IMG/VR virus record: IMGVR_UViG_2609459840_000012
Location: 1 to 30,027 of that record
From: a virus
Taxonomy: Duplodnaviria > Heunggongvirae > Uroviricota > Caudoviricetes
Reading direction: 5' to 3' (one strand)
DNA length: 30,027 nucleotides
In this document: positions 1-27,077 of the stretch, one piece after another
Layout: the number at the start of each line of letters is the position of its first letter
Position numbering within the stretch: the stretch's first letter is position 1
Program-made: the position numbers and the translations under genes
Notes under the pieces: generated by a model
Told to the model about the DNA's origin: nothing
Databases searched by the model: none
The model's input: the letters and a program-made list of their open reading frames with translations, nothing else

Positions 1-552
1 TCATGGCGTTAACTCCCGTAATACAGCGTCCTCGGCAGTCCGGCGACGGTAATAAACTGCGTGAGCAGAATGTTCAGATATTCCAAACTTTTCGCCAATT
101 TCCCGGAATGACAGACGGCGTGGGTAATCGGAATCACGCAGCGCACGTATAAGACGTACATCATCATCAGATATGCGCGTGCCGGGGCGTAACTCTCCGC
201 ACTTTGTTAATCCAGCACCAATCATTCCTGCCCGACATCTGACAGAATCTTTATTACGTCCGAGATATTCTCCCATTTGCTGGCAGGTCATTGTTCTGGC
301 ATTTTTTCGAATAAACTTATCTTCATCAGGTGTAAATCTTGGGTGTTTATATTTCAGTAACTCCGGGTATGAACTGCGCAATACACCAGTCCGGTTATAT
401 ACAGCCCAGACAGTTCTTTTTATTCTGGCAGCAATATCCTTAACCGGGGTGGATGAATAAAGCGCAATCAGCAGCGCATCTTCTTCAGGTGTCCACGGAC
501 GGACATGAGCGGGGGCGCGACCTTTTCGCCCCATGGGTTGTAAAATCATCAT
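1..552 (-). CDS. Putative DNA-binding regulator of the Mu-like early operon (183 aa); possibly Mor-like
   Basis: Complete ORF (stop at 1-3), ATG at 552 directly after the upstream stop. Two N-terminal repeats of a W/F-TPE(D)ED...IA...R motif resembling GcrA/Myb-type helix-turn-helix, and a C-terminal segment (LSFREIGEKFGIS...AVYYRR) resembling sigma region 4 / Mor-C family HTH. Function inferred from motifs only. Confidence 0.5.
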   Translation of the reverse strand: MMILQPMGRKGRAPAHVRPWTPEEDALLIALYSSTPVKDIAARIKRTVWAVYNRTGVLRSSYPELLKYKHPRFTPDEDKFIRKNARTMTCQQMGEYLGRNKDSVRCRAGMIGAGLTKCGELRPGTRISDDDVRLIRALRDSDYPRRLSFREIGEKFGISEHSAHAVYYRRRTAEDAVLRELTP

Positions 553-555
553 ACA

Positions 556-1071
556 TCACCCCCTGACTCGCTTTTCAGCAGCATAAAACTCATCAGACAG
601 TATTTCGGTCATTTTCTGTTTTGCGGGTTTTACGCCGCACTGAAGGTAAATCACATCGTCAACGCAGAACCACTTCACAGGGCCAAACAGGATTGCCGAG
701 AAATCAATACCCAGCCAGAACAACAGCGCATCGGTTCTGGCATACGTGACGGGCGAATATTCACGCCACAGACTGTTCAGTTCATCAGAGGCAACACGCA
801 GGGTTTTAGGGATACGTGATGTGCGCGGTGTGCAGCTCCAGCCATTCGACGCAGTCGGTTTTCGCCATAAGTCGCGATGAAAAGGATATTTGTCCTCCGT
901 AAAACGCAGTCCCTTAAAGCAAAATCCACTGATACCGGATACAAATACCGACCGGCACGCAACATTCAGCACGGCCTCAAGGCGTTTTGCCTCATCCTTA
1001 ACTTTCTGGCAGTCCTGCTGGTATTTTTGCCACGCAGCCAGCGCGGAAGGGTTTGATGTTTTAAAGAACAT
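556..1071 (-). CDS. Hypothetical Mu-like early-region protein (171 aa)
   Basis: ORF in tight operon arrangement; its ATG overlaps the stop of the upstream gene (TAATG). No recognisable motif. Confidence 0.5.
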   Translation of the reverse strand: MFFKTSNPSALAAWQKYQQDCQKVKDEAKRLEAVLNVACRSVFVSGISGFCFKGLRFTEDKYPFHRDLWRKPTASNGWSCTPRTSRIPKTLRVASDELNSLWREYSPVTYARTDALLFWLGIDFSAILFGPVKWFCVDDVIYLQCGVKPAKQKMTEILSDEFYAAEKRVRG

Positions 1072-1604
1072 TACGCCACCTCCGCAGATATCCCGGCAGG
1101 CGCTGCTGTCCGGTCAACAATCAGGTAGCGCAGAACATGTTCAGTGATATTCCAGCCGCTTAAACCGCAGATAATGACGCCCAGGCGTATGTCGATATAC
1201 GCCATCACAAACTGGGGCACGCCTTCTTTCATGGCCTGCTCATCAACTTCAGCCACCACATAAACGGTTTCACAGGTCAGAACGCCCTGAGCAAATTCCC
1301 ACGCCATCGACGGAATATCATGCCCCTCAATCCATGGCAGGGATTTTCTGAAGCTGCACCACTGAACATCATCAGCCGCAGATTCCTGGCTGCATTTGCG
1401 ACGAACCGGCTGCACCGGGCGGGGGCGCGGAATATCATAAAAACCGTTACATTCCGTCAGCACGCCTGCATCAACCGCATCACGCAGAAAATAAACCATG
1501 GAGGATGGCGGCATATTCATTTTTTCAGCCAGTACACCGCAGGTCAGGCGGCCATAAATACGCAGCCAGTTTTTAACCCCTTCAAGCACTTTTGCATCAA
1601 TCAT
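1071..1604 (-). CDS. Hypothetical Mu-like early-region protein (177 aa)
   Basis: ORF with GGGGA Shine-Dalgarno 8 nt upstream of ATG at 1604; follows gam in the same operon. Confidence 0.5.
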   Translation of the reverse strand: MIDAKVLEGVKNWLRIYGRLTCGVLAEKMNMPPSSMVYFLRDAVDAGVLTECNGFYDIPRPRPVQPVRRKCSQESAADDVQWCSFRKSLPWIEGHDIPSMAWEFAQGVLTCETVYVVAEVDEQAMKEGVPQFVMAYIDIRLGVIICGLSGWNITEHVLRYLIVDRTAAPAGISAEVA

Positions 1605-1749
1605 GATTTATTTCCCCACCACATTATTAATGACGATATAAACGTATTTCATATTTCTTAACCCTTATTTTCTGTTTTCAGGCGCAAGCAGTCCCCTGAC
1701 GCGAGCGCCATAATTAAAATGAAGTGATATTTAATTGATTAATGCGGTG

Positions 1750-2280
1750 TTATTTATTCAGTCCGGCGTCCTGTTCAAAAGGCTCGACATAAAAACTTTC
1801 AGCGCCTTTATTCACCTTGATACCGGCAATGCCTTTCACAGCATCCGGCTCCGCCAGGACGGCTTCCTTGTTCACTTCCTCTTTCGTGCGGATGAAACGC
1901 TCAAGCCCCATACGGCGCAGCATTTCAATCACACCTTCCACATCACGGCTGACGCTGCATGATGGCGTTCCCAGCCGCCATGACACCGTTCCGGTGGTCA
2001 GATTGGCTGTTTTGGTTTTGCCGCCGTTCGTCAGCTCATCACGGTTGGTTTTGCACCAGTCCTGAATCCCTTTAAAAAGCACTTTGATTTGCTTTTTAAG
2101 ATTTTCAATCTGCGGCGTATAACGGGCGGTGATTTCTGCCACTTCGTCATTCATCGCCGTTTCCAGGCGCAGCGCCTCTCGCTGAATATCTCCCAGGGTG
2201 CGGATATCACGGCTGACTTCTTCCCGGGTCTGCGGTGCCGCCTCGGCTGCGGCCTTTAATTTTGTAACGCGTTTAGCCAT
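1750..2280 (-). CDS. gam: Gam-like host-nuclease inhibitor (Mu Gam family, 176 aa)
   Basis: Translation carries the motif NRDELTNGGKTKTANLTTGTVSWR and overall collinearity with Mu Gam as I recall it; AAGGA Shine-Dalgarno upstream of ATG at 2280. Confidence 0.85.
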   Translation of the reverse strand: MAKRVTKLKAAAEAAPQTREEVSRDIRTLGDIQREALRLETAMNDEVAEITARYTPQIENLKKQIKVLFKGIQDWCKTNRDELTNGGKTKTANLTTGTVSWRLGTPSCSVSRDVEGVIEMLRRMGLERFIRTKEEVNKEAVLAEPDAVKGIAGIKVNKGAESFYVEPFEQDAGLNK

Positions 2281-2291
2281 TTTGTTTTTCC

Positions 2292-2585
2292 TTATTGCAG
2301 TGTGCCTGATGCTTTATGCACGCGGTGGCGTTTAATGATGGCATCCGCTCCAAAAGACTGTGCAGATGCCTGAAATTCCGCTGAGAGAAACTGAATAATT
2401 GCAGGACTGTGATACTGGAGAATACTTGCATAAACGTCACAGAGTGACGTCGGCCTGTTATCCGTATCACGTTCTGTTTTCACATCCACTCCAATCTTTT
2501 CATGCACTTCAACACAGTCATTGCCTGCCAACTTTTCGTCATGCGAAACATGATTAAATTCAAAAATAACGCGTACTTTGCTCAT
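2292..2585 (-). CDS. Small early protein (97 aa), paralog-like N-terminus MSKVRVIFEF
   Basis: ATG at 2585 with CAGGGG Shine-Dalgarno; N-terminal 11 residues nearly identical to the adjacent upstream gene. The track's longer ORF start at 2612 is rejected for lack of a ribosome-binding site. Confidence 0.5.
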   Translation of the reverse strand: MSKVRVIFEFNHVSHDEKLAGNDCVEVHEKIGVDVKTERDTDNRPTSLCDVYASILQYHSPAIIQFLSAEFQASAQSFGADAIIKRHRVHKASGTLQ

Positions 2586-2589
2586 GGAA

Positions 2590-2862
2590 TTACCCCTGTT
2601 GATTAAATTCATTACCGTTAATAACCCCGGAAGCCATGCCTCTGTCTTTCATGAATGCACTGGCTTTCATTGCCACAAACTCTGCGAAGTTTCTGCTTTC
2701 TGCCAGCATAACCACCCCAAAAATCATGGCGGGTCCATTATCTTTCTTCTTTATTCCGGTTGAACGTATATCCAGACTTACCCCTCTGCGCGTGCTGCCA
2801 TCAGAGTTTTTATAGATAACATCTTCCTTATATTCGAAAATAATGCGTACGACTTTACTCAT
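2590..2862 (-). CDS. Small early protein (90 aa), N-terminus MSKVVRIIFEY
   Basis: ATG at 2862 preceded by GAGG; shares its N-terminal motif with the 2292-2585 gene. Confidence 0.5.
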   Translation of the reverse strand: MSKVVRIIFEYKEDVIYKNSDGSTRRGVSLDIRSTGIKKKDNGPAMIFGVVMLAESRNFAEFVAMKASAFMKDRGMASGVINGNEFNQQG

Positions 2863-3140
2863 CCTCTGGTCCTCGTTCTGTTTGGATAACTGACCCGGCG
2901 TCTAACCTCACGGCAGAACCGAATCATGGCATTAAAGGCTTCTTCCTCCGTCACCGCTTCCGGTATCCCCGGAACCAGTAACTGCTCCTGTTCATCACGT
3001 CCATGACGCGCCATAACCTCAATCACATGCCGTACCGTGGCAGGCTTTCCGGCAACTATCGGCAATGCACCTTCCGGCAGGACGTAACCAAACTCAATAA
3101 GACCACTCGACCACGCCCATGCAATGAGATTTTTTTTCAC
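2859..3140 (-). CDS. Small early protein (93 aa)
   Basis: GTG start at 3140 with strong GGGAGGTG Shine-Dalgarno; start overlaps the upstream stop (TGAGGTG). Confidence 0.45.
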   Translation of the reverse strand: MKKNLIAWAWSSGLIEFGYVLPEGALPIVAGKPATVRHVIEVMARHGRDEQEQLLVPGIPEAVTEEEAFNAMIRFCREVRRRVSYPNRTRTRG

Positions 3141-3141
3141 C

Positions 3142-3396
3142 TCACACCTCCCAGTAAACCGTGCAGCCGCTGATGCGGGTGGCCTTCACACGGCGGCGCA
3201 GGCCGTTGGTCTGTATGGTGATTTCAATTTCACCGGTTCCCTGCACGTTGCCTACCGGCGGCGTGGTTTTCAGTGCAAAACGTTGTGGGTAGCGCTTACT
3301 GCGTTCCAGTACCGCACCGGCAAGTTCGGTCAGACGGCGCGCGCTGTTCAGGGAGTCGAATAAATTCATTTTGTTACCGCAGGATTGCATATTCAT
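3142..3396 (-). CDS. Small early protein (84 aa)
   Basis: ORF 3142-3408; the second ATG (3396) is preferred because GAGGTG lies 5 nt upstream, while the first ATG has no ribosome-binding site. Confidence 0.4.
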   Translation of the reverse strand: MNMQSCGNKMNLFDSLNSARRLTELAGAVLERSKRYPQRFALKTTPPVGNVQGTGEIEITIQTNGLRRRVKATRISGCTVYWEV

Positions 3397-3408
3397 ATAA
3401 CACCTCAT

Positions 3409-3630
3409 TTAGCTGATTCGTTTTGCACCGATAAAACGACAAATATTGCTGTAAGCTTCTGTCGCACCTTCACGATCAAGTCCGGCAGATATCACCATTC
3501 TGGTGCGGTCATTAAATTCAAAAAGTAAATCGCCACATTCTTTATTTTCGGCCAATGAAATCACCTTCACGTTATCGAAATTCACCAGGTGAAAGCGTCC
3601 GTAAATATCAGGAATATTAAATGCAATCAT
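3409..3630 (-). CDS. Small early protein (73 aa) in the position of Mu kil
   Basis: ATG at 3630 with AGGTG Shine-Dalgarno, immediately after the B stop; size and position match Mu kil, but no sequence similarity is claimed. Confidence 0.45.
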   Translation of the reverse strand: MIAFNIPDIYGRFHLVNFDNVKVISLAENKECGDLLFEFNDRTRMVISAGLDREGATEAYSNICRFIGAKRIS

Positions 3631-3632
3631 AA

Positions 3633-4565
3633 TCACACCTGTGAGAGTAATTCAGGGTTGGTATAAACCTCTTTAAAGGCCGCATTAATATGTTTTTCTG
3701 TCAGCGCCGCGCCTTCACCGCTGGCGGTGAGCCACGCCTGGTTAAGCGTATGTGTCAGAACGCGTAACGCTCCCGGCTTTTCAGCGATAGCCTGCATGAC
3801 GGCCAGCTCGGCCTCACCACTGATCCCCCACGCCATGGCAATGGCCAGCACATCCGCCTTTTTGGCCTTGCGAAGTTGTTTTGTACGGGCAAGACGGCTG
3901 AACAGGCGCGATAAATCATCAAAGGCGCGGCGTCCACCCTTAAACAATCCGCGCGGGTTACCAATAAGCACCATCCCGATCCCCGTGGCGTCCTGAATTG
4001 CCCGGAGTTGCTCCAGACCGTCAATACCAAGATGATCCGCCTCATCCACAATCACCAGTCCACGCGTTCCCATCAGGCGACGGCGGATGGCGCGGGATAA
4101 TGCCCCTTTGTTCGCGCGGGTGTAATCAATCCCCAGCGCATCGGCCAGCTCCAGCAGACACTCCGTGACGCTGGAGTGCGCGGGTGACAGGGTGATCATC
4201 CAGGTGTTTGGTTGCTCCTGGCAGTAATTACGGGCGGTGGCCGTTTTACCCACCCCGGGCACGCCCACTATGACGTTAATACAGCCCATCAGGCGGACCG
4301 CCTGAAACAGCGCGCGCAGCTCCTGGACTGTCTGCGTTTCCACAAACTGCGGCGGCTCGGGCAGTGCGCTTTGTTTATTCCAGTTCTCATACCAGGAACG
4401 CAGGGAAGCAGCCACAGCAGCGTTATCGCCTTTATATTTTCCCTTACGGAAAGCCGATAATGTGCCGTCGGAAATTCCCGCCTCTCTGGCGATGGCATAC
4501 TGCGTCAGTACGCCGCCATCAATAAGTTCATCAATGGTCTTGATTACATCGTTAATATCAGTCAT
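3633..4565 (-). CDS. Mu B-like transposition ATPase / target DNA activator (310 aa)
   Basis: Walker A GVPGVGKT, Walker B VIVDEADHL, N-terminal HTH, and overall collinearity with Mu B (PEPPxFVETQTV, KKADV..IA.AW, KPGALR). Confidence 0.9.
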   Translation of the reverse strand: MTDINDVIKTIDELIDGGVLTQYAIAREAGISDGTLSAFRKGKYKGDNAAVAASLRSWYENWNKQSALPEPPQFVETQTVQELRALFQAVRLMGCINVIVGVPGVGKTATARNYCQEQPNTWMITLSPAHSSVTECLLELADALGIDYTRANKGALSRAIRRRLMGTRGLVIVDEADHLGIDGLEQLRAIQDATGIGMVLIGNPRGLFKGGRRAFDDLSRLFSRLARTKQLRKAKKADVLAIAMAWGISGEAELAVMQAIAEKPGALRVLTHTLNQAWLTASGEGAALTEKHINAAFKEVYTNPELLSQV

Positions 4566-4636
4566 ATTATTAACCTCTCATTTGATACCTTGTTTAATCA
4601 AATAACCTGAGTCGCCGCTCGGGTTATTTTTTTATT

Positions 4637-6724
4637 TCAGGCCAGCGGGTCATTTTCTTTTAATTTCGCTTCCAGCAACTGCAATCCCCGCTGGAAATTA
4701 CGCTCGTATTCTTCATCAGGTTCATCGTCAGCGACCGGTTGCTGAACGGTCACCGTATTACCCACAGGGCGGTATATGTTTTCCAGCCAGGGCTCCTGCG
4801 GCTTGTGCTCCAGCACGTTGACAACCTCATCCTCGGCATCACGGATTTTTTCCTCTGCGCGTTTACGCATGCCTTTAAGGCGCTGCTGCTGTTTGTAGTA
4901 TTCCGCGCTGACAGGGAAGGCTTCGCGTTTATTGCCGTCCCATACCGCCTCGCAAATCACGCTGCCATCCGGGCGGCGCACGGTAATTCGTTCGGCATCA
5001 TGAATGTCATAGCTGATAAGTACCTTACGGCCATGCTCGTCACGCAGCTCGGGCGCGTAGTAAATATTATTCAGCCAGCGTATTTCACAGCGTCTTACAG
5101 GGCGCTCCACCATCGGCCGGAACATATCCCGCAGTTCAACATCGGACAGCCATTCAATTTCCGTGTCCTCTTCCGCCAGGCGTTTTTTTCTGAACTCCGC
5201 CGGGCTGTAATGTTTACCGTTCGGCTTCATGGGTAATTCATCGTGCGGCCGGTTGTTGTACCACTCAACACCGTCACGAATGGCATCAATCAGTTCAGAC
5301 CAGGACGGTAAATCACGCATCGCTGACTGCTGCCGGGCGTTCAGCCGTTTGCCCTGTTGCAGGGCACTGAATGCCGAGCGTAAATCGCGGTTGGTTTTAC
5401 GTAACGTCTCGCGATCTGCTCCTTTCCCGAAATAGGTGCGGTATTTACGGGCTATGCGCATCGGTAATGTGCGGTTAAGCCGTTCGATAATGCCCCGTCC
5501 CTGCGGATTACCGGCAATCCCTGTCGGGTGATTAATCCCCAGTCGTGGCAGTATCCCCACAATCTCCTTATCCAGGACGTCGGCGGTTTCCCCGGAGCCA
5601 TTATCCGAGTAATACAGAAACGGTTTGCCATGATGGCGAATACCGTGCTGTATGGCACCGGCTACGGCGAAAACATTTTCAGCCAGGTCAAGGCTCCAGC
5701 CCACCACAAAGCGCGTGCCACCGTCGATAACAAAGGTCACTTCCGGTGCGAATGGCCGCCCGTGAACCGGGTGCGCGCATTTCAGCTTCATGCCGTGACC
5801 GTCACCAATCCAGACATAATTCACCGGCATTTTTGACCAGTCGCGGCGCGTGAATCCCTCAAGCTGGCGGTATTCACTGCCGGTAACCCGTCCTTTTTGT
5901 TTCACCACTTCCGGCAGTTTCTTCATTGCGCGGCGAATGGTGTCATAAGACGGCATGATATCGAGCATATAAGGCTCATCAGCGTGCCGGTGCTGCCATT
6001 CGGCAACAAAATCCTCGTAAGCCTCGGTCATTGGTCGGCCGTTTGACTGGCGATACTGCGCCAGAAATTCGGGCAACCAGTTAATATCTTCGGCTTTTAT
6101 TTCCTGGCGTTTACCTGGTGCCAGCAAAAGCAGGCGTTCAGCAGCGTTCTGTGCCTTATTAAAGGCCGCAATCCAGCGTTTCAGCGTGATTTCACTCAAC
6201 ACGCGACTGTTTCCCTTTCTGGCGTTCGCTATCTCAACCATTGCCACAATGCGCTCATCCAGTTGCGAGTGTGACAGGCGGTCAACGATGAACCGGATAG
6301 CTTTAGCGCAGCTGAAACCGGGTTGTTGCGTGAATTTCAGCACCTCACTGACGATCGCAATGCGTGCGTCTGCCACCTGGCGCTGGTTTTCAGTCAGGGC
6401 ATTGAGGCGTTCGACCATCAGTTGTGGTGATCCGCGATATGCCTCCACCGCATCAACCACGGCAGACGAGCGTCTGGCCTTTGTCACCACCGGAGCCGGT
6501 GATTCATCGGCTTTTTGCGTCATCAGTTGCAGGGCATAACGTTCGCGTAATGCCTGCTGTGTCACTTCAGGTAAACAGTCAATGCTGTATTCAAAACCTT
6601 TAGCGCCTTTCTTGCGGCGTCTGCTGGTTTCGCTGGTTGCATACTTCCTGATTGAATAGCGAACGCCTTGCTCCGTTCCCGGCATCCCCGGTAATCCAAC
6701 CAGTTCTTTGACTGAAGCAAACAT
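4637..6724 (-). CDS. Mu A-like DDE transposase (695 aa)
   Basis: Size, position between ner and B, N-terminal DNA-binding region, a central region with acidic residues consistent with a DDE catalytic core, and an acidic C-terminus; gene order ner-A-B is Mu-typical. Confidence 0.9.
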   Translation of the reverse strand: MFASVKELVGLPGMPGTEQGVRYSIRKYATSETSRRRKKGAKGFEYSIDCLPEVTQQALRERYALQLMTQKADESPAPVVTKARRSSAVVDAVEAYRGSPQLMVERLNALTENQRQVADARIAIVSEVLKFTQQPGFSCAKAIRFIVDRLSHSQLDERIVAMVEIANARKGNSRVLSEITLKRWIAAFNKAQNAAERLLLLAPGKRQEIKAEDINWLPEFLAQYRQSNGRPMTEAYEDFVAEWQHRHADEPYMLDIMPSYDTIRRAMKKLPEVVKQKGRVTGSEYRQLEGFTRRDWSKMPVNYVWIGDGHGMKLKCAHPVHGRPFAPEVTFVIDGGTRFVVGWSLDLAENVFAVAGAIQHGIRHHGKPFLYYSDNGSGETADVLDKEIVGILPRLGINHPTGIAGNPQGRGIIERLNRTLPMRIARKYRTYFGKGADRETLRKTNRDLRSAFSALQQGKRLNARQQSAMRDLPSWSELIDAIRDGVEWYNNRPHDELPMKPNGKHYSPAEFRKKRLAEEDTEIEWLSDVELRDMFRPMVERPVRRCEIRWLNNIYYAPELRDEHGRKVLISYDIHDAERITVRRPDGSVICEAVWDGNKREAFPVSAEYYKQQQRLKGMRKRAEEKIRDAEDEVVNVLEHKPQEPWLENIYRPVGNTVTVQQPVADDEPDEEYERNFQRGLQLLEAKLKENDPLA

Positions 6725-6726
6725 AA

Positions 6727-6957
6727 TTACGCGACCTTACGAATGTAGCGGCTGGGCCAAATCTCCTCGGGCGGCACCCCCAGGCATTCCGCGATAATCC
6801 CCTCATACTTGGGAACATGGCGGTATACCGCGTTGTACAGATTGTTCTGACCCACGCCAGCTTTACGGGCCAGCGCCCTCATGCTTCCTTCTCTGGCTCT
6901 GACTTCCCCCAAAATTCTTTGAGGATGCCAATCAGGCTTAACTTCATTTCTCGCCAT
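6727..6957 (-). CDS. ner: Ner-like DNA-binding regulator (76 aa)
   Basis: Translation MARNEVKPDWH...EIWPSRY matches the Mu Ner / Nlp family signature (DWH near the N-terminus, IWPSRY near the C-terminus). Stop lies 2 nt from the A start. Confidence 0.85.
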   Translation of the reverse strand: MARNEVKPDWHPQRILGEVRAREGSMRALARKAGVGQNNLYNAVYRHVPKYEGIIAECLGVPPEEIWPSRYIRKVA

Positions 6958-7141
6958 GATTCATCTATCCTAAAAAGTTACGAAATTTGATAACTAAACT
7001 TAGTTATCAAGTTTGATATAAGTATTGATCCACTTCTGCTTCATGTAAAGCAAAAAAACATCTTTCTTTTGTCTATTGTGGATCAATGGTTGCTGACAAC
7101 ACTAAAAGTTAATAATTTCAAATTGATAGGAAGAAAAGAAA
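6958..7141. promoter_or_regulatory. Divergent c / ner control region with operator-like inverted repeats
   Basis: 24-bp near-perfect palindrome TTGATAACTAA-AC-TTAGTTATCAA at 6987-7010; 10-bp inverted repeat ATTGATCCAC (7024-7033) / GTGGATCAAT (7078-7087); recurring TTGATA motifs. Candidate c promoter TTGCTG-17-TAATTT at 7090-7118. Confidence 0.5.
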
Positions 7142-7687
7142 ATGAACAAGCAAACAACAACATCTCTTTCTTTTCCTGGTGGTAGAAAAGAAAGCATTGC
7201 TGAGCGTCTGAAAAGGCTGATTGGCTCCCGCAGCGTCAGAGCTGCAGCAAGAGATTGGGGGCTTTCATTTTCAACACTAAACAATTATCTGTCTCGTGGC
7301 ACTGAGCCATCCTTAAGTGTCGCCCTTCAGATTGCGTCTATCGAAGGAGTAAGTGTTGAGTGGCTATGTGGATTCAGTGATGCATCACAAGTGAATCGGT
7401 GTGAGATCAAGGAAAATCAAGATGAAAGCAAGAAGATAATTATGACGATTATCAGCGCACTTGATGAAAAAGACTTAGAGCAGCTATCGAAAAATTTGGT
7501 TCTGAATGGAGCCAAGTACTTAGCTCGGTTGTTAGAGCCTGAAAATCAAGATCTAATCCGCTTAGAAGGAAGGAAAAGAATAGCTGCATTACAGCTTGAA
7601 GGTATGTCTGACGAACGCGTCAGAGAGATTTTGGAAGAAACTGAGAGAAGTCGCAAATCTAACGCGGTAGAACCAAAAGCGGGTTAA
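7142..7687 (+). CDS. Transposable-phage repressor c-like protein (181 aa)
   Basis: N-terminal CI-type HTH (SIAERLKRL...AAARDWGLSFSTLNNYL); C-terminal segment (LEGMSDERVREIL) resembles the Mu c C-terminal region; divergent from ner as in Mu; AGGAAG Shine-Dalgarno. Confidence 0.8.
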   Translation: MNKQTTTSLSFPGGRKESIAERLKRLIGSRSVRAAARDWGLSFSTLNNYLSRGTEPSLSVALQIASIEGVSVEWLCGFSDASQVNRCEIKENQDESKKIIMTIISALDEKDLEQLSKNLVLNGAKYLARLLEPENQDLIRLEGRKRIAALQLEGMSDERVREILEETERSRKSNAVEPKAG

Positions 7688-7761
7688 TAGCATTAGCCCG
7701 CATTTTGCACTATATCGAGTATTTCGCATTGTTTGGAACGCCTTAAAAGACTAAAACCACA

Positions 7762-7773
7762 GTATCAAATGAG
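7762..7773 (+). repeat. Mu A-type end-binding-site-like repeat (L3 position)
   Basis: GTATCAAATGAG; the reverse complement CTCATTTGATAC resembles the Mu att consensus core TTCAYTNNAARYRCGAAA. Confidence 0.5.
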
Positions 7774-7811
7774 TTGCCGATTTTATAATAAATGACTAAT
7801 TATTGCACAAT

Positions 7812-7824
7812 CGGTATCAAATAG
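7812..7824 (+). repeat. Mu A-type end-binding-site-like repeat (L2 position)
   Basis: CGGTATCAAATAG; same core as the copies at 7762 and 7907. Confidence 0.5.
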
Positions 7825-7906
7825 ACCTTATCCGCACATCTAGCCATCACCTGTTTTATTTCAGTATCTTACAGGTGATTTCACCTCCTTTCACTAAAAC
7901 CCTTGT

Positions 7907-7923
7907 CGGTATCAAATGATTCA
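7907..7923 (+). repeat. Terminal Mu A-type binding-site-like repeat (L1 position) with candidate terminus CA at 7922-7923
   Basis: CGGTATCAAATGATTCA; read inward from the end this is 5'-TGAAT-CATTTGATACCG, compared with Mu 5'-TGTAT-TGATTCACTTGAAGTACG. Confidence 0.5.
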
Positions 7924-7961
7924 CCTGGTTATAGTTTATAGCCCGTAAACAGGGCGAGACG

Positions 7962-16336: not shown

Positions 16337-17053
16337 ATGTCTGCTTTGTATGAACGTTCACAACTGACGCAGGTGATGATTTCATCTGCTCCGGCCACGG
16401 CTGAAACCATGGATAAGGCGGAGTATCTGCGCCTGGACTGCACCATCAAGGAAGTCCAGTTCACCGCCGGTCAGAAACAGGATATTGATGTGACCACGCT
16501 CTGCTCCACAGAGCAGGAGAACATCAACGGTCTGGGGGCGTCTTCCGAGATTTCCATGTCGGGTAATTTTTATCTGAATCAGGCCCAGAACGCCCTGCGT
16601 GATGCTTATGACAATGACGCGTTGTATGCGTTTAAGGTGCTGTTTCCGTCCGGTAAGGGCTTTAAATTCCTGGCGGAAGTGCGTCAGCACACCTGGTCAT
16701 CCGGTACCAACGGCGTGGTGGCTGCAACGTTCTCACTGCGTCTGAAAGGCAAACCGGTGTCCTTTGTGGTACCGCTGGCGTTTGTGAAAAATCTGGATAA
16801 GACACTTACCGTGAATACCGGTGCGCTGCTGACAATGTCAGTCAGTGCCAACGGGGGAACGCCGCCGTATAAATACGCCTGGAAGAAGGATGGTCAGCCG
16901 GTTGACGGGCAGACGACAGACACCTTCAGTAAGCCAGGTGCGCAGTCCGCTGATGCGGGGAAATATACCTGCGTGGTGACCGATTCGGCAGAGAAAGCAC
17001 AGAGTGTGACGTCTGTTGAATGCACCGTGACAGTGAGCGCAGCCGCCGGATAA
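16337..17053 (+). CDS. Major tail protein with C-terminal Ig-like domain (238 aa)
   Basis: ATG 16337 with AGGAGG Shine-Dalgarno (the track's TTG at 16319 is rejected); C-terminal Ig-like segment (TVNTGALLTMSVSANGGTPPYKYAWKKDGQPV...KYTCVVTD). Confidence 0.75.
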   Translation: MSALYERSQLTQVMISSAPATAETMDKAEYLRLDCTIKEVQFTAGQKQDIDVTTLCSTEQENINGLGASSEISMSGNFYLNQAQNALRDAYDNDALYAFKVLFPSGKGFKFLAEVRQHTWSSGTNGVVAATFSLRLKGKPVSFVVPLAFVKNLDKTLTVNTGALLTMSVSANGGTPPYKYAWKKDGQPVDGQTTDTFSKPGAQSADAGKYTCVVTDSAEKAQSVTSVECTVTVSAAAG

Positions 17054-17067
17054 GGGGATGGGTCATC

Positions 17068-17442
17068 ATGAAAAAGGATCTGAAAACGCTGGCGCTGGCC
17101 AGACTGTCAGGGTTTCGTCATAAAACGGTGAAGGTGCCGGAATGGGGTAATGTCAGCGTGGTGCTGCGGGAGCCTTCGGCAGAGGCCTGGTATCTGTGGC
17201 AGGAAGTGCTCAATGGTGATGGAGAGGATGACGATCCCCTGGGGGTGGGGGCAAAACCCCGCCGTAACCTGGAAGCGGATGTGACGCTGTTCTGCGATGT
17301 CCTGTGTGATACGGATCTGCAACGGGTGTTCACTCCGGACGACCGTGAGCAGGTGCTGGCCGTCTATGGTCCGGTACATGCCCGCTTGCTGCGTCAGGCA
17401 CTGGAACTGATCGCTGATGCAGAGTCGGCCAGAAAAAAGTAG
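17068..17442 (+). CDS. Tail assembly chaperone G-like (124 aa)
   Basis: ATG 17068 with GGGGA Shine-Dalgarno; acidic protein directly upstream of the tape measure gene; ends ...RKK-stop at a slippery heptamer. Confidence 0.7.
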   Translation: MKKDLKTLALARLSGFRHKTVKVPEWGNVSVVLREPSAEAWYLWQEVLNGDGEDDDPLGVGAKPRRNLEADVTLFCDVLCDTDLQRVFTPDDREQVLAVYGPVHARLLRQALELIADAESARKK

Positions 17443-17747
17443 CCCGCCCGGAAATTCGCTTTCTGATGCGACTTGCGCTCCGTCTGGGGCGCACCTTATC
17501 CGAACTGCGCCACAGCCTGAGTGCGAGCGAGGCGATGATGTGGATGGAGTTCGACAGGGTATCCCCGCTGGGTGATGAGCGCGGGGATATCCGTAATGCA
17601 CAGATCGTGAAAGCGGTTTTCGGGGCACAGGGGATGAATGTTGCACTGAAGGACGCCATGCTCTGCTGGGGCGAGGATGAGGATAAGCCGGAGGTGGATC
17701 CGTTTGCGGCGCTGGAAGACGCGCTGAGCTTTGCAGCACAGTCATGA
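17068..17747 (+). CDS. G-T fusion tail assembly chaperone made by -1 programmed frameshift at A AAA AAG (17433-17439), predicted 226 aa
   Basis: The -1 frame is open only from 17418 and runs to the TGA at 17745-17747; the slippery heptamer sits 1 nt before the G stop; the downstream frame encodes a T-like domain. Confidence 0.6.
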
Positions 17748-17756
17748 ATGATGAGA

Positions 17757-17776
17757 ACCGCTGAGGCGGTTTTTTT
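17757..17776 (+). terminator. Hairpin plus T7 (ACCGC-TGAG-GCGGT-TTTTTT) upstream of the tape measure gene
   Basis: 19 of 20 nt identical to the element at 10039-10058. Confidence 0.45.
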
Positions 17777-17794
17777 ACGCCCGGAGAAAGGTGA

Positions 17795-20700
17795 ATGGCG
17801 ACGTTACGTGAACTGATTATCAAAATTTCGGCAAATTCACAGTCATTCCAGTCGGAGATCCAGAGGGCGTCCCGTATGGGCAGTGAATATTACCGGACCC
17901 TGCAGAATGGCGGACGTCAGGCTGCTGCGGCAGCCAGGGAGCAGCGCCGGGCTCTGGCTGAGCTGAACAGCCAGTTGACGGAAATCCGCGCTTCAGCTGT
18001 CGGAATGACCGGTGCGTTTGCCGGTGCCTTTGCCACCGGACACCTGATTTCGCTGGCGGATGAATGGAGCTCCGTGAATGCCCGTCTGAAACAGGCGTCG
18101 CAGTCATCGGATGAATTTGCGTCATCACAGAAAGTGCTGATGGACATCAGCCAGCGGACAGGCACCGCATTTTCGGATAATGCGGCTCTGTTTGCCCGCT
18201 CTGCCGCCTCGATGCGTGAATATGGTTACAGTGCTGATGATGTACTGAAGGTGACGGAGGCCATTTCGACAGGGCTGAAAATTTCCGGTGCCAGTGCGGC
18301 AGAGGCGGGTTCGGTGATCACCCAGTTCAGCCAGGCGCTGGCACAGGGGGGGTTGCGCGGCGAGGAATTTAATTCTGTCAATGAAAGTGGGGACCGGATC
18401 ATTCGCGCACTGGCTGCAGGCATGGGCGTGGCCCGTAAGGATCTGAAGGCGATGGCGGACGATGGTCAACTGACGGCGGATAAAGTCGTTCCCGCGTTAA
18501 TCAGCCAGCTGGGGATATTGCGTGATGAATATGCAGCCATGCCGGAAACGGTTTCCGGTAGTATCACGAAGGTGGAAAACGCCTTTATGGCCTGGGTGGG
18601 CGGCGCGAATGAGGCCAGCGGAGCGACGAAAACGCTCTCCGGCGCGCTGAACGGTGTGGCCGGAAATATTGATACCGTGGCAACAGCTGCGGGTGTGCTG
18701 GTTGCTGTCGGGGTGGCCCGGTACTTTGGTAATCTGGCTTCCGGAGCGATGTCTGCCACGGCAGGACTTGTGACCGCTGCACGTAATGAAGTGGCACTGG
18801 CTGAGGCCCAGTTAAGGGGAACGCAGATTGCCACTGCGCGGGCAAGGGCAGCCGTGTACCGGGCTCAGCAGGCTGTGGCGGCAGCCCGCGGGACTGAGAT
18901 GCAGATTGCGGCAGAGGCCCGTCTGGCGGTCACACAGGAACGCCTGAACAGAAATATTGCTGCCAGAACCGCCGCCCAGAATGCGCTGAACAGTACAACG
19001 GCGGTGGGCTCACGTCTGATGAGCGGTGCGCTGGGACTGGTTGGCGGTATCCCCGGACTGGTCATGCTGGGTGCAGCAGCATGGTACACGCTGTACCAGA
19101 ATCAGGAGCAGGCCATGGAGTCTGCGCGCCAGTATGCACTGACGATTGATGAAATCGCGCATAAAACGCCGTCAATGTCTTTGCCTGAAGCCTCAGATAA
19201 TGAAGGACGAACACGGGAGGCGCTGACAGAGCAGAACCGGCTGATTGATGAGCAGGCCAGCCGGGTGAAATCCCTGCAGGAAAAAATCGCCGGGTATCAG
19301 TATGTGCTGGCTAATCCTGGCTGGACGACAGATAACGGCTTCATGATAAACCATCTGACATCGGTGAAAACTGTAACGGAAGGGCTTGCTCAGGCAACAG
19401 AGCAGCTTGCCGTTGAGCAGTCCCGTCTGGCACAGATGCAGGAAAAAGCGCAGTCCATTCAGGATGTGCTTGCCGGACTGGAAGAGCGCCGTGTTGTGTT
19501 AATTCGTCAGCAGGCAGCAGAGCAGAATAAAGCGTATCAGTCACTGCTGGTCATGAACGGCCAGCATACGGAATTCAACCGCCTGCTGGGGCTGGGTAAT
19601 GAACTGCTGCAACAGCGTCAGGGACTGGCGAGTGTACCGCTGCGACTGCCACAGGCCACTCTGGATGATAAACAGCAGAGCGCCCTGAATAACACAGAGC
19701 GTCAACTGGCCCTGTCCCGGCTGAAAGGGGAAGAAAAAGAGCGTGCCCGGCTGGGGTATGCGGCGGATGACCTTGGTCTGGTGGGGGATACGTATCAGGA
19801 GGCGAGGCAGCGTTACATCCGTAATTCGATGGAAGCCTGGCGCAATAATGAGGCGAATAAACCCAAATCCCGGGGCGGAAAATCTGAGACGGAAAAAGCG
19901 GAAGACAGTTTTTCCCGTCTGCTGAAGCAGCAGAAGGAACAACTGGCACTGGCAGGGAAGAATACAGAACTGGCGAAGCTGAAGTACCAGACCTCGCAGG
20001 GCGAGCTGAAAATCCTGACGGAGATACAGAAGCAGGAGCTGCTGCGCAATGCTGCCCTGATTGACCAGAAGAAAATCCGGGAGCAGTTACGGGCCCGGGA
20101 GGAGACCCTGAAAAATGATAATGCAGACGCAAGGGCATCAAATGACGCAGAGCTGCTGGGATACGGGCAGGGTGAGCGGATCCGAGAACGGATGCGGGAG
20201 CTGAAGCAGATTCGTGACGGCTACCGCCAGAAGGATGCGGACCTGCAGTCTCAGTATCAGACAGGGGATATCAGTGAGGATTTTTACAGACAGGCGCTGG
20301 CGCAGAATGCGCAGTATCTGAGTGAGCGCCTTAAAGACCAGGAGGCTTTTTATGCCGAATCGGATGCGCAGCGTGCTGACTGGCAGAAAGGGCTGCAGGA
20401 AGGGCTAAGTAACTGGGTGGACAGCGCATCAGATTACGCTTCACAGGCAGCACAGCTTGCGACAGACGGTATCTCAGGGATGGTGAATAACATCACGGAG
20501 ATGCTGAACGGAAATAAAGTGGAATGGCGCAGCTGGGCTGCATTAATCCTGCAGGAAATATCAAAAGTTCTTATGAATGCGGCCATTGTCAACGGCATTA
20601 AGATGGCGGCAAACAGTATGTCCGGTGCAGGAGGATTTTTCGGCAGTATAGGCAACTGGCTGGGTGGCGCGGTGGCAAATGCAAAAGGCGGCGTTTATAC

Positions 20701-21037
20701 CTCGGCAAACCTGAGTGCATACAGTAACAGTATTGTGGACACGCCCACGTACTTTGCCTTTGCAAAAGGGGCAGGGCTGATGGGGGAGGCCGGACCTGAA
20801 GCCATAATGCCTCTGACCCGGGCAGCGGATGGTTCACTCGGCGTGCGTGCGGTGGGCAGTATGAACGGCAGTGCGGGTCTGGTGTATTCCCCGGTGTACC
20901 ACATCGCCATTCAGAATGACGGCGCTAACGGGCAGATAGGGCCGGAAGCGGCGGGCACCCTTGTGCAACTGATTGACCAGCGGGGACAGGCGGTGATGTT
21001 ATCCATGCGTCGTGACGGAGGAATGCTGAGTGGATGA
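17795..21037 (+). CDS. Tail tape measure protein (1080 aa)
   Basis: Length, Ala/Gln-rich coiled-coil composition, hydrophobic Gly-rich segment, position after G/T. Confidence 0.9.
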   Translation: MATLRELIIKISANSQSFQSEIQRASRMGSEYYRTLQNGGRQAAAAAREQRRALAELNSQLTEIRASAVGMTGAFAGAFATGHLISLADEWSSVNARLKQASQSSDEFASSQKVLMDISQRTGTAFSDNAALFARSAASMREYGYSADDVLKVTEAISTGLKISGASAAEAGSVITQFSQALAQGGLRGEEFNSVNESGDRIIRALAAGMGVARKDLKAMADDGQLTADKVVPALISQLGILRDEYAAMPETVSGSITKVENAFMAWVGGANEASGATKTLSGALNGVAGNIDTVATAAGVLVAVGVARYFGNLASGAMSATAGLVTAARNEVALAEAQLRGTQIATARARAAVYRAQQAVAAARGTEMQIAAEARLAVTQERLNRNIAARTAAQNALNSTTAVGSRLMSGALGLVGGIPGLVMLGAAAWYTLYQNQEQAMESARQYALTIDEIAHKTPSMSLPEASDNEGRTREALTEQNRLIDEQASRVKSLQEKIAGYQYVLANPGWTTDNGFMINHLTSVKTVTEGLAQATEQLAVEQSRLAQMQEKAQSIQDVLAGLEERRVVLIRQQAAEQNKAYQSLLVMNGQHTEFNRLLGLGNELLQQRQGLASVPLRLPQATLDDKQQSALNNTERQLALSRLKGEEKERARLGYAADDLGLVGDTYQEARQRYIRNSMEAWRNNEANKPKSRGGKSETEKAEDSFSRLLKQQKEQLALAGKNTELAKLKYQTSQGELKILTEIQKQELLRNAALIDQKKIREQLRAREETLKNDNADARASNDAELLGYGQGERIRERMRELKQIRDGYRQKDADLQSQYQTGDISEDFYRQALAQNAQYLSERLKDQEAFYAESDAQRADWQKGLQEGLSNWVDSASDYASQAAQLATDGISGMVNNITEMLNGNKVEWRSWAALILQEISKVLMNAAIVNGIKMAANSMSGAGGFFGSIGNWLGGAVANAKGGVYTSANLSAYSNSIVDTPTYFAFAKGAGLMGEAGPEAIMPLTRAADGSLGVRAVGSMNGSAGLVYSPVYHIAIQNDGANGQIGPEAAGTLVQLIDQRGQAVMLSMRRDGGMLSG

Positions 21038-21371
21038 GATTAAGACCCTTCACTGGTGTCCCCGGGAAGGGATGCAGGTGACGGAGAAACCGTCGGTGGT
21101 GACGGTGAAGTTTGGCGACGGTTATCAGCAGCGTCGTCCGGCAGGACTGAATGCGCAACTGAAGACCTTTCAGGTGGTTTTTCGGGTGACAACGGATGCT
21201 GAGCGGGAGGCACTGTCCGCGTTTCTGTCATGGCATGGTGGTTACCGGGCTTTTTTGTGGAAGCCCCCGAAACATAACCGGACGGTCAGGGTGGTGTGCC
21301 GGGAGTGGAGTATTACGGATAACGCCCGGTACAGTGATTTCAGTTGCACGATAGAGCAGGTGGTGAACTGA
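21030..21371 (+). CDS. Minor tail protein, lambda M-like (113 aa)
   Basis: GTG start; motifs VKFGDGYQQRRPAGLNAQLKT and IEQVVN collinear with lambda gpM as I recall it. Confidence 0.85.
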   Translation: MDEIKTLHWCPREGMQVTEKPSVVTVKFGDGYQQRRPAGLNAQLKTFQVVFRVTTDAEREALSAFLSWHGGYRAFLWKPPKHNRTVRVVCREWSITDNARYSDFSCTIEQVVN

Positions 21372-22069
21372 TGCAGGATATTCATGAAGAAAGTCTTAAC
21401 GAGTCGGTTAAATCAGAGCAGTCACCGCGGGTGGTGCTCTGGGAAATTGACCTGACGGTGCAGGGCGGTGAGCGCTATTTTTTCTGCAATGAGCTGAATG
21501 AAAAAGGGGAGCCGGTGACCTGGCAGGGGCGGGAATATCAGGCATACCCGATTGACGGCAGCGGCTTTGAGATGAACGGAAAGGGCAGCAGTGCCCGCCC
21601 GTCGCTGACGGTGTCCAATCTGTTTGGTCTTGTCACCGGGATGGCGGAGGACCTGCAGAGTCTGGTGGGTGCCACGGTGGTCCGCCGCCGGGTGTATGCG
21701 CGTTTTCTGGATGCGGTGAATTTTGTGGCGGGCAATCCGGAAGCGGACCCGGAGCAGGAGCTGAGCGACCGCTGGGTGGTGGAGCAGTTATCAGAGCTGA
21801 CGGCCATGAAGGCCTCGTTTGTGCTGGCCACACCGACCGAGACGGACGGGGCGCTGTTTCCCGGTCGCATCATGCTGGCGAACACCTGTATGTGGACCTA
21901 CCGCTCTGATGAGTGTGGTTACACGGGCGGGGCGGTGGCGGATGAGTTCGATAAACCCACCACGGATATCCGTAAGGACAGATGCAGCAAGTGCATGCGC
22001 GGGTGTGAGCTGCGCGGCATGGTGGCTAATTTCGGCGGTTTCCTTTCCATTAATAAACTTTCGCAGTAA
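21371..22069 (+). CDS. Minor tail protein, lambda L-like (232 aa)
   Basis: Begins MQDIHEESLNE; motifs VVLWEIDLT, GERYFFCNE, CMWTYRSDECGYTG and ending GGFLSINKLSQ match lambda gpL including the cysteine cluster. Confidence 0.9.
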   Translation: MQDIHEESLNESVKSEQSPRVVLWEIDLTVQGGERYFFCNELNEKGEPVTWQGREYQAYPIDGSGFEMNGKGSSARPSLTVSNLFGLVTGMAEDLQSLVGATVVRRRVYARFLDAVNFVAGNPEADPEQELSDRWVVEQLSELTAMKASFVLATPTETDGALFPGRIMLANTCMWTYRSDECGYTGGAVADEFDKPTTDIRKDRCSKCMRGCELRGMVANFGGFLSINKLSQ

Positions 22070-22079
22070 ATCCCATTTT

Positions 22080-22823
22080 ATGACACAGACTGAATCAGCG
22101 ATTCTGGCGCATGCCCGGCGGTGTGCGCCTGCGGAGTCGTGCGGCTTCGTGATAAGCACGCCGGAGGGGGAGCGGTATATCCCTTGTGTGAATATTTCCG
22201 CAGAGCCGGAGGCGTATTTTCGTATCGCACCGGAAGACTGGCTGCGGGCAGAGATACAGGGGGAGATTGTGGCACTGGTCCACGGTCATCCCGGTGAGCT
22301 GCCCTGGCTGAGCGAGGCTGACCGGCGGCTGCAGATAAAAAGCGCACTGCCCTGGTGGCTGGTCTGCCGGGGGGAAATTCATAAATTCCGCTGTGTGCCA
22401 CATCTGACAGGACGGCGCTTTGAGCACGGGGTGACGGACTGTTACACGCTGTTCCGGGATGCATACCATCTGGCGGGAATTGATATGCCGGATTTTCATC
22501 GCGAGGATGACTGGTGGCGCAACGGCCAGAACCTGTACCTGGACAATATGGCAGTCACCGGCTTTTACCGGGTGCCCCTGTCCTCTGCACAGCCGGGCGA
22601 TATCCTGCTGTGCTGCTTCGGCGCATCGGTGGCTAATCATGCCGCCATTTACTGCGGCAACGGTGAACTGCTTCACCATATTCCTGAACAACTGAGTAAA
22701 CGGGAGAGGTATTCCGAAAAATGGCAACGACGAACGCATTCTGTCTGGCGTCACCGCCACTGGCACACATCTGCCTTCACGGGGATTTACAACGATTTGG
22801 CCGCCGCCTCAGCCTGTATGTGA
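22080..22823 (+). CDS. Tail assembly protein, lambda K-like (MPN/JAB plus NlpC/P60-type domains), 247 aa
   Basis: ATG 22080 (the track's upstream extension from 21819 is rejected); HGHPGE metalloprotease-type motif and a Cys/His hydrolase-type segment; overlaps the I gene by about 100 bp. Confidence 0.8.
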   Translation: MTQTESAILAHARRCAPAESCGFVISTPEGERYIPCVNISAEPEAYFRIAPEDWLRAEIQGEIVALVHGHPGELPWLSEADRRLQIKSALPWWLVCRGEIHKFRCVPHLTGRRFEHGVTDCYTLFRDAYHLAGIDMPDFHREDDWWRNGQNLYLDNMAVTGFYRVPLSSAQPGDILLCCFGASVANHAAIYCGNGELLHHIPEQLSKRERYSEKWQRRTHSVWRHRHWHTSAFTGIYNDLAAASACM

Positions 22824-23401
22824 ACACGGCAGCGGAAGCCATTCGCGCCCTGTCGATGCAGATGCCGGGCTTTCGCCTTCAGATGAACGAAGGCTGGTAC
22901 CAGATACGTATTGCCGGTGAAGACACGGCACCGGAGGTGGTGTACGCCCGCCTTCACGAACAGCTGGGTGAGGGAACGGTCATCCACATTGTGCCGCGAC
23001 TGGCCGGGGCCGGAAAGGGTGGACTGCAGATTGTGTTGGGGGCGGCAGCCATCGTGGGCTCTTTCTTCACGGCCGGAGGCTCGATGGCGTTATGGGGTAC
23101 AGCCCTGAGTGCCGGCGGTTTTTCTGCCACCACGATGCTGTTTTCACTGGGGGCCAGCATGATACTGGGTGGTGTGGCCCAGATGCTGGCCCCGAAGGCA
23201 AAAACACCGGAGTACAGGGCGACGGATAACGGCAAACAGAACACGTACTTTTCCTCGCTGGATAACATGATTGCCCAGGGGAACCCGATGCCGGTGCCTT
23301 ACGGGGAAATGCTGGTTGGCTCCCGCCGTATATCCCAGGACATCAGCACCCGTGATGAAGGCGGGGGCGGAAAGGTCGTGGTTATCGGGCGACAGGGATA
23401 A
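22721..23401 (+). CDS. Tail assembly protein, lambda I-like (226 aa)
   Basis: N-terminus CLHGDLQRFGRR and C-terminal DNGKQNTYFSSLDNM...YGEM.VGSR collinear with lambda gpI. Confidence 0.85.
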   Translation: MATTNAFCLASPPLAHICLHGDLQRFGRRLSLYVNTAAEAIRALSMQMPGFRLQMNEGWYQIRIAGEDTAPEVVYARLHEQLGEGTVIHIVPRLAGAGKGGLQIVLGAAAIVGSFFTAGGSMALWGTALSAGGFSATTMLFSLGASMILGGVAQMLAPKAKTPEYRATDNGKQNTYFSSLDNMIAQGNPMPVPYGEMLVGSRRISQDISTRDEGGGGKVVVIGRQG

Positions 23402-23641
23402 AACATAAAAAAATCCCGCAGTGATCGCGGAGCTGCGGGGACAGACAAATGAAGATCAATGTGAAGGAGTTGTTTTTGTTACTTGGGCAAAAAAACACTA
23501 ACGCAGCGAAATTATAAGCGCCACAGTCAGTGTGTGAAAATGTGAAGATATTCAGAAATTTTATTCCGTCATGACGCAGGCACCCGGTGAGGTGCCTGTT
23601 GTTTTTGTGAGTGAACAATTATCACGGTAAGAGGTGATGTA

Positions 23642-26600: not shown

Positions 26601-27031
26601 CCGCGAACCAGATTGAAGGCGATCTCGTTAAAACAGTGGGCAAAGCTTTCCCCCGGGACTCCCGTGCACCGGAACGGTGGCCATCAGGGACCATTACCGT
26701 CAGGGTTTATGACGATCAGCCGTTTGACCGGCAGATTGTTATTCCTGCGGTGGCATTCAGCGGCGCTAAACATGAGAGAGAGCATACTGATATTTACTCC
26801 TCATGCCGTCTGATAGTGCGGAAAAACGGTGCTGAAATTTATAACCGTACCGCGCTGGATAATACGCTGATTTACAGTGGCGTTATTGATATGCCTGCCG
26901 GTCACGGTCACATGACGCTGGAGTTTTCGGTGTCAGCATGGCTGGTAAATGACTGGTATCCCACAGCAAGTATCAGCGATTTGCTGGTTGTGGTGATGAA
27001 GAAAGCCACCGCAGGCATCAGTATCAGCTGA
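23642..27031 (+). CDS. Host specificity / central tail fibre protein, lambda J-like (1129 aa)
   Basis: Length and collinearity with lambda gpJ; C-terminus ...[14 protein letters not shown] resembles the lambda J receptor-binding end as recalled. Confidence 0.9.
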
Positions 27032-27050
27032 ATTTTATAACCCATATAAG

Positions 27051-27077
27051 GGCACCAGAAATGGTGCCTTTTTTATT
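27051..27077 (+). terminator. Intrinsic terminator after J (GGCACC-agaaat-GGTGCC + T6)
   Basis: Perfect 6-bp GC-rich stem followed by TTTTTTATT. Confidence 0.7.

Follow-up and report, generated by a model that had tools for sequence, protein, structure and literature searches.

Mu-like phages are known to insert into other prophages of E. coli. Among 13 closed genomes of CC119 STEC, six of ten Mu-like phages were located inside mobile elements, and several Stx phages carried insertions of Mu-like phages similar to Sp18 (Nakamura and colleagues, Microb Genom 2023, PMC10132054). Sp18 of E. coli O157:H7 Sakai was predicted to be intact, was not circularised and was efficiently packaged (PMC2669165). 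Annotated examples from STEC are available in LC727895.1 and LC727881.1, where a Mu-like genome occupies an Stx/lambdoid prophage. Two further points of reference are the lambdoid prophages located at the host gene yecE that carry an HK97-type HNH-terS-terL module (e.g. EC100 and the 'PPyecE' records) and bacteriophage Mu itself, which duplicates 5 bp of its target and has termini of the form TG...CA.

The DNA analysed here, a stretch of 30,027 nucleotides (hereafter the window), contains another instance of this documented type of event. An Sp18-type Mu-like phage has transposed into the small terminase gene (i.e. terS) of a lambdoid prophage already resident in yecE, a reading to which we assign a probability of about 94%. 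A first-pass annotation of the window had likewise proposed two elements, with a Mu-like prophage inserted in a lambdoid one, and this proposal was borne out by an intact empty site in relatives, a reciprocal junction with its target duplication and the mobility of the Mu-like element. The inserted phage belongs to the same family as those of LC727895.1 and LC727881.1, and shares with them both the lambdoid location and a 4-bp duplication, but the host prophage is here a non-Stx lambdoid prophage at yecE and the interrupted gene is terS instead. Positions 3586-24809 of the window (21,224 bases compared) were 100% identical to JNMU01000015.1, a contig in the E. coli assembly GCA_000700625.1.

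The Mu-like part of the window comprises the following features.

1 to 7933, minus strand: left arm (7.9 kb) of the Sp18-type Mu-like transposable prophage; early genes run leftward and the element extends past the window start
1750 to 2280, minus strand: Gam-like host-nuclease inhibitor, 176 aa (PF07352 Phage_Mu_Gam, E=5.5e-42)
3633 to 4565, minus strand: MuB-like AAA+ target-capture protein, 310 aa (PF09077 Phage-MuB_C and PF13401 AAA_22)
4637 to 6724, minus strand: MuA-like transposase, 695 aa (PF02316 HTH_Tnp_Mu_1 and PF09299 Mu-transpos_C)
6727 to 6957, minus strand: ner-like early regulator, 76 aa (PF13693 HTH_35, E=1e-21)
7142 to 7687, plus strand: repressor gene c, 181 aa, divergent from ner-A-B (weak HTH_3 match)
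7759-7770, 7811-7822 and 7906-7917, no strand: three copies of a 12-nt end repeat, (T/A)C(G/A)GTATCAAAT (repeat search)
7930 to 7933, no strand: terminal TATA of the Mu-like left end (comparison of nine insertions; the right end opens with the inverted TATA)

A DDE transposase of the MuA type and its MuB-type AAA+ partner were both present, which places this element among the Mu-like phages. The repressor gene is divergent from ner-A-B, which are followed by the kil/gam semi-essential region, and every long ORF to the left of 7933/7934 is on the minus strand except c. Domains, gene order and the three repeats thus agree with the earlier claim that the c/ner-A-B-gam order and the end repeats mark a Mu-like left arm running leftward. 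The genes A, B, c, ner and gam were all full length, and a Gp11_C protein was also encoded on this arm according to Pfam. The transposase was 93.7% identical to that of the Mu-like phage annotated in the Stx phage LC727895.1, and positions 1-7933 were colinear over their full length with the left arm of an intact 38.6-kb prophage of E. coli HH35 (L013 34818-42761) at 98.6% identity. The exact c repressor protein occurred in 2,797 blocks of a public collection, with many different chromosomal sites among the places listed. The GC content was ~40% between c and the break and 56-60% to the right of the break. A scan for terminators on the plus strand downstream of c flagged no terminator-like site.

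The last base of the Mu-like left end is position 7933 (...CACCTGGTTATA). Nine independent insertions of this phage agree in every base as far as 7933, after which their sequences are unrelated; among the flanking contexts are ispH, bcsA, eut and a P2 capsid gene. When positions 7400-8400 were compared by megablast with 5,426 complete E. coli genomes, the match ended at 7933 in 22 records, at scattered chromosomal places, and began only at 7934 in >1,200, always at terS-terL; none of the 5,426 genomes contained the whole stretch or this insertion. As two unrelated sequence families both stop matching at one base, the break at 7933/7934 is far beyond chance. The end of the element had previously been set at 7923, where there is a canonical ...CA terminus; this position is 10 bp off and was rejected on the grounds that ten further bases are common to all of the independent insertions. 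Together with the short duplications described below, the nine flanks joined to one and the same end indicate integration by transposition.

The three left-end repeats are candidate transposase-binding sites, similar to L1-L3 of Mu. The same motif was found at the right end of the Mu-like phage as three copies of a TTTGATACCG-type sequence, and the right end of the HH35 prophage opens with TATAGCGCGGCGATTTTTTTGATACCG, such that the TATA terminus and the 17-nt gap to the first TTTGATACCG are the same as at the left end. Separately, the segment at 7846-7879, between the second and third end repeats, contains a 9-bp inverted repeat without mismatches (ATCACCTGT/ACAGGTGAT), its arms 16 nt apart, and a related sequence, TCACCTGGTT, was present at the Mu-like terminus (7921-7930).

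To the right of the break, the window consists of lambdoid prophage and host DNA.

7934 to 8354, plus strand: 3' remnant of terS, the lambdoid small terminase gene (nt 144-564; residues 49-187)
8351 to 10012, plus strand: terL, large terminase, 553 aa (TerL_ATPase, TerL_nuclease)
10076 to 29572, plus strand: remaining morphogenesis operon (Pfam matches), including the next seven features
10076 to 12013, plus strand: protease-capsid fusion
12225 to 13589, plus strand: portal
13586 to 14809, plus strand: repeat-containing ORF
17795 to 21037, plus strand: tape measure
23642 to 27031, plus strand: J
27099 to 27698, plus strand: Lom
27763 to 28956, plus strand: tail fibre
28964 to 29572, plus strand: DUF4376 protein
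29936 to 29942, no strand: attR core CAGTTAA, inside yecE (attR GTCACACAGTTAAAGTGG, as against EC100 attL CACGCAGTTAATGTGAC)
29943 to 30027, minus strand: 5' end of the host gene yecE (MIYIGLPQWSHPKWVRLGITSLEEYARHF...), interrupted by the prophage; the translation covers the first ~29 residues of YecE

The operon follows the lambda/HK97-type late order from terminase to tail fibre, as judged by Pfam matches and by colinearity with the EC100 and ZH48 prophages, and connectors are encoded between the repeat-containing ORF and the tape measure gene. Positions 7934-29724 were 98-99.7% identical to the ZH48 prophage, with the exception of a ~2.1-kb moron; the same range of identity was obtained for the EC100 prophage, which was compared up to position 22069 of the window. 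The yecE prophages with the HK97-type module (e.g. EC100 and the 'PPyecE' records) share with the window the integration site, the TerS sequence and the late operon at 98-99.7% identity, and differ from it in that terS is here split by the Mu-like genome. The moron of ZH48 lies between tail genes L and K and encodes a ClpP-like protease, an Arc-family repressor, YlcI/YnfO and a P22AR C-terminal domain. It is absent from the window (22069-22105), and a ClpP gene occupies the same position in EC100. A 162-bp tandem repeat (13811-14343; 3.3 copies, 97% matches) was found in frame within the ORF at 13586-14809, downstream of the portal gene. The product of this ORF is 407 aa in length, as compared to 335-353 aa in relatives, and only one public contig encoded the exact 407-aa protein. 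In relatives, PGAP has labelled the portal region 'frameshifted'.

The host-like reading frame of yecE extends up to the CAGTTAA core, in agreement with the earlier placement of an attR inside a host gene. The claim that lambdoid DNA reaches from 7924 to this attR stood for the late operon and the attR, while the start moves to 7934. The same yecE site is annotated in EC100 and in MLI104K2, with yecD adjoining. Comparison of the attR with the attL of EC100 gave an inferred attP for the lambdoid prophage that is palindromic (i.e. GTCACA-CAGTTAA-TGTGAC). In EC100, the prophage at yecE carries int, xis, N, cI, cro, cII, replication genes, Q, a lysis cassette and an HNH gene upstream of terS, with int and xis next to yecE; the integrase gene of the strain studied here lies outside the window. 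An 18-bp direct repeat, TGGGGCATGTATGGGACA, is present in both lambdoid arms (29800-29817; L019 10761-10778), ~120 bp inside attR and, close to attL, adjoining the int 3' end. This repeat was considered as the att core and rejected because yecE host sequence runs to about 29943; the repeat might be an arm-type integrase site.

In intact relatives terS is 564 nt long, and the junction falls after its first 143 nt, such that position 7934 corresponds to nt 144. Translated, 7935-8354 matched the 187-aa TerS of ZH48 and EC100 at every residue from 49 to 187. These two pig isolates were the closest uninterrupted relatives and were 100% identical to the window over 7934-8400. Intact TerS has a Terminase_2 match at residues 2-59, whereas the remnant had no Pfam match: the window encodes residues 49-187 only, rather than an uninterrupted small terminase with its N-terminal domain, and the Terminase_2 region is on the far side of the Mu-like element. 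The longest startable ORF in the remnant begins at a GTG codon (7962-8354; TerS residues 58-187), and an in-frame TAG stop upstream of it, at 7932-7934, arose from the joining of the two sequences. The ORF at 7962 had been taken for the first late gene, with the insertion some 40 bp upstream of it; it is a remnant only, and the insertion is inside terS. An uninterrupted version of the site, which the first-pass annotation had proposed should be sought in relatives, was readily found. HNH, terS and terL form an unbroken series in EC100 and ZH48, and in 10/10 other contigs with an identical TerL an HNH gene and then an intact TerS (187-189 aa) were immediately upstream.

The reciprocal product predicted from this position would carry terS codons 1-49 reading into the Mu-like right end, giving a fusion ORF of 85 aa. 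A protein homology search with the predicted fusion returned an 85-aa protein (P0001) at 99% identity and 100% coverage, recorded in the database as "terminase small subunit [Escherichia coli 3-373-03_S1_C1]". The three contigs that encode it share the order Q, methylase, DUF6645, DUF1378, DUF826, holin, lysozyme, Rz, HNH, terS 5' part, mom and com. One of them, contig L025, continues through tail-fibre and baseplate genes. The reciprocal junction, with a matching 4-bp duplication, was therefore present in three NCBI assemblies, and within GCA_000700625.1 it is located on contig JNMU01000006.1 (L027). The junctions and the intact site read as follows.

Left junction, window: ...GGTTATA / GTTTATAGCC
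Intact site, EC100: ...GCTTGC^GTTTATAGCC
Right junction: terS 5' part ...GGTGCTTGCGTTT / TATAGCGCGGCG..., followed by mom and com; in short form, HNH-terS 5' part ...GCTTGCGTTT / TATAGCGCGG (Mu-like right end)
7934 to 7937, no strand: GTTT, right-hand copy of the 4-bp target-site duplication (from the reciprocal junction and the intact site of EC100)

The first-pass annotation had anticipated a Mu-like right end with a 5-bp duplication matching the bases next to 7923. Both the right end and a matching duplication were found in the same assembly, but the duplication is of 4 bp (GTTT) and is positioned at 7934-7937. An independent Logan assembly of SRR1186646 contained an identical left junction on a contig seen in three samples. 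A 38-mer spanning the junction had 0 exact matches in a contig collection made up of species representatives only.

Four other complete insertions of the same phage were flanked by 4-bp duplications (i.e. CGTA, GGCG, CGTC and TCTA), and the Mu-like phage in LC727895.1 is flanked by AGAG, annotated as "duplication due to insertion of Mu_JNE122137". Duplications of 4 bp were accordingly observed in 6/6 events of this E. coli Mu-like family, as read at window 7930-7937, L013 4136 and 42761, L014-L017, and L020 6089-6096 and 45426-45433. Every one-base shift of the boundaries was tried, and in none of the six events did this yield a direct repeat of 5 bp. A description of 4-bp duplications in Mu-like phages was not found in the open-access literature searched, although GenBank does annotate them.

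The resemblance to Mu extends to the families of the transposase and MuB domains, the c/ner-A-B-kil-gam-...-mor-lys order, the location of mom/com at the right end, multiple transposase-site repeats (candidates here) at both ends and essentially random insertion. Sequence similarity was remote, with no Mu record among the top transposase matches, and the Mu-like right arm carries an additional DUF6645-DUF1378-DUF826 cassette. The family also departs from Mu in its 4-bp rather than 5-bp duplications and in its termini, which are TATA...TATA here; neither end of the element conforms to 5'-TG...CA-3'. This lowers identity with Mu proper but does not affect membership of the wider Mu-like group. 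The left terminus is TGTA in the CC119 relative (LC727895.1) as compared to TATA here, while the right terminus is TATA in both. The 4-bp duplications and the TA (rather than CA) termini are the sole point that might interest transposition specialists, and the former are already in GenBank. For Sp18, the overall order (c/ner-A-B ... mom) matches, with the likeness resting on the published description of close relatives (PMC10132054), and right-end relatives in O157 genomes were about 96-97% identical.

Two explanations would dispense with an insertion altogether. One is that the window derives from a single hybrid phage whose natural genome combines a Mu-like early region with lambdoid late genes. 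E. coli prophages are often mosaic, and c and the terminase genes are adjacent and in the same direction. The join, however, coincides exactly with the terminus at which the transposon is inserted at nine other, unrelated sites, and it falls within a codon of terS. The missing 5' part of terS adjoins a Mu-like right end, where a matching copy of GTTT is present. Among the phage and genome records searched, none had c and terS adjacent as a unit, and no related genome was found with the repressor-terminase adjacency of an intact single phage, a finding that had been put forward in advance as evidence against two elements. A hybrid phage is hardly credible in the light of these observations. An equally slight likelihood attaches to a chimera of two unrelated contigs, brought together at a repeat during assembly. 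It is true that the source assembly is a draft from short reads and that its two contigs both end within the Mu-like element, but the join itself lacks a shared repeat. The same junction recurs in the independent Logan contig from three samples, and the reciprocal junction and its matching duplication occur in the three NCBI assemblies. Since both junctions are present in independent assemblies, a chimeric join was ruled out.

A third explanation accepts the insertion and disputes its significance: the Mu-like element would be a decayed remnant, its middle deleted or rearranged, in a lambdoid prophage that was already cryptic, with no functional consequence. The central ~23 kb of the element is unseen, a sibling isolate has a hybrid DUF6645 cassette consistent with a Mu-like/lambdoid inversion, a 174-bp Mu-like end remnant in O157 AR-0430 indicates that such insertions do decay, and the portal gene of close relatives has been flagged as frameshifted by PGAP. 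On the other hand, the visible arms were 98.6-99.4% identical to the intact 38.6-kb prophage and without large indels, and A, B, c, ner and gam are full length. The two-ORF portal region is, moreover, the usual arrangement in all relatives. Decay of this kind is unlikely.

In the transposition into terS, strand transfer occurred between nt 143 and 144, with the 4-bp GTTT duplicated on both sides, and the Mu-like genome is oriented with its left end abutting the 3' part of terS and its early genes directed away from terL. The size of this genome, about 38.6 kb, was taken from the intact relative in HH35; its central ~23 kb is unassembled in the source genome, where both contigs end within the element. 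The portions seen, i.e. 7.9 kb of left arm and a right arm of up to 7.9 kb (sibling contig L025) or 1.9 kb (L027), were nearly identical to HH35. With intact ends and full-length early genes, the Mu-like prophage is probably still active. TerS would be split at about residue 49, with the Terminase_2 region staying with the HNH gene and the lysis cassette. The HNH gene, the HNH-terS interval and the lysis genes would be cut off from terL and the structural genes by ~38.6 kb of oppositely oriented DNA. In HNH-type phages, cos is usually located between HNH and terS.

Judging from the disruption of the gene and from what is established for cos/HNH-type terminases and for Mu, lambdoid packaging should be lost: without the N-terminal DNA-recognition part of TerS, the lambdoid prophage would be unable to recognise or package its own DNA. 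The lambdoid prophage had been considered probably defective as a result of the separation of its late promoter and lysis cassette from the morphogenesis genes. The defect is still predicted, and a split terS would produce it more strongly and by a more direct route than a polarity or distance effect. Precise excision of Mu-type elements does not occur at a useful frequency, and the terS defect would therefore be effectively permanent. The composite element, at an estimated 90 kb or so, should also exceed the capacity of one lambdoid capsid; LC727895.1, which serves as a comparator of size, is 93.6 kb. Rescue by TerS supplied in trans from another resident lambdoid prophage is conceivable, and the lambdoid prophage could already have been defective before the insertion. 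Complementation between prophages has been demonstrated in O157 Sakai (PMC2669165). In practical terms, a lambdoid prophage that looks nearly complete should be scored as defective on account of the split terS and of a composite of roughly 90 kb, and prophage-calling tools and readers should not fuse two nested phages into one. The importance of this instance beyond the source strain is otherwise small.

A cassette of DUF6645 (SASA esterase), DUF1378 and DUF826 is present both in the lambdoid prophage and in the Mu-like right arm (L025 3355-5070 and 12498-14214). After the insertion, the two DUF6645 cassettes form 1.7-kb inverted repeats with 89% identity. In a sibling assembly, GCA_000700265.1 (L026 3354-5070), the cassette is a clean single-crossover hybrid, Mu-like in its left part and lambdoid in its right part, that links Mu-like tail genes to lambdoid lysis genes. 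Either the ~7-kb segment that separates the copies has been inverted by recombination, or the hybrid is a misassembly. Given that the region by the right junction is apparently rearranged in this sibling, the present-day structure may vary between isolates.

Other members of the Mu-like family were also encountered within prophages. A P2-family prophage of E. coli AST46 has its major capsid gene interrupted by the same Mu-like phage as in the window, with an identical left end and the duplication GGCG (L002 3533-4465; L014 175-303), and elsewhere Mu-like right ends abut J and tail-tip genes. In O157 AR-0430 (NZ_CP044140.1, L021 501-674), an independent insertion into the same packaging module has decayed to 174 bp of a related Mu-like left end, 91% identical to window 7761-7934; the remnant adjoins a truncated HNH endonuclease gene in another lambdoid prophage, about 430 bp upstream of its terS. 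A match of 64% coverage (H1) that suggested lambdoid homology inside the Mu-like end was rejected, as it corresponds to this separate remnant.

Insertion of Sp18-type phages into prophages could be favoured, whether because dispensable DNA offers a safe haven or because the insertion knocks out the packaging or structural module of a competitor. The interruption of terS, HNH (AR-0430), P2 capsid (AST46), J, tail-tip, tail-chaperone and connector genes, and the location of 6/10 CC119 phages in mobile elements, are compatible with such a preference. Purifying selection against insertions in useful genes explains the pattern equally well. By a rough count, at least 9 of about 91 fusion ORFs at the right end involved phage genes, which is not clearly above the roughly 5-16% of prophage DNA in such genomes and gives no clear enrichment. 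A genuine preference for prophages is accordingly very doubtful.

These fusion ORFs belong to a wider set of dozens of database 'proteins' (P0030-P0120) that consist of a fragment of a host or phage gene and a ~35-aa tail from the Mu-like right end. Fusion partners include LptF/G, YncL, Ren, minor tail protein G and a head-tail connector. The 'proteins' are annotation artefacts and jointly represent a ready catalogue of insertion sites, and read-through fusion ORFs at the end of a transposable phage are usable for finding the reciprocal junction in draft assemblies.
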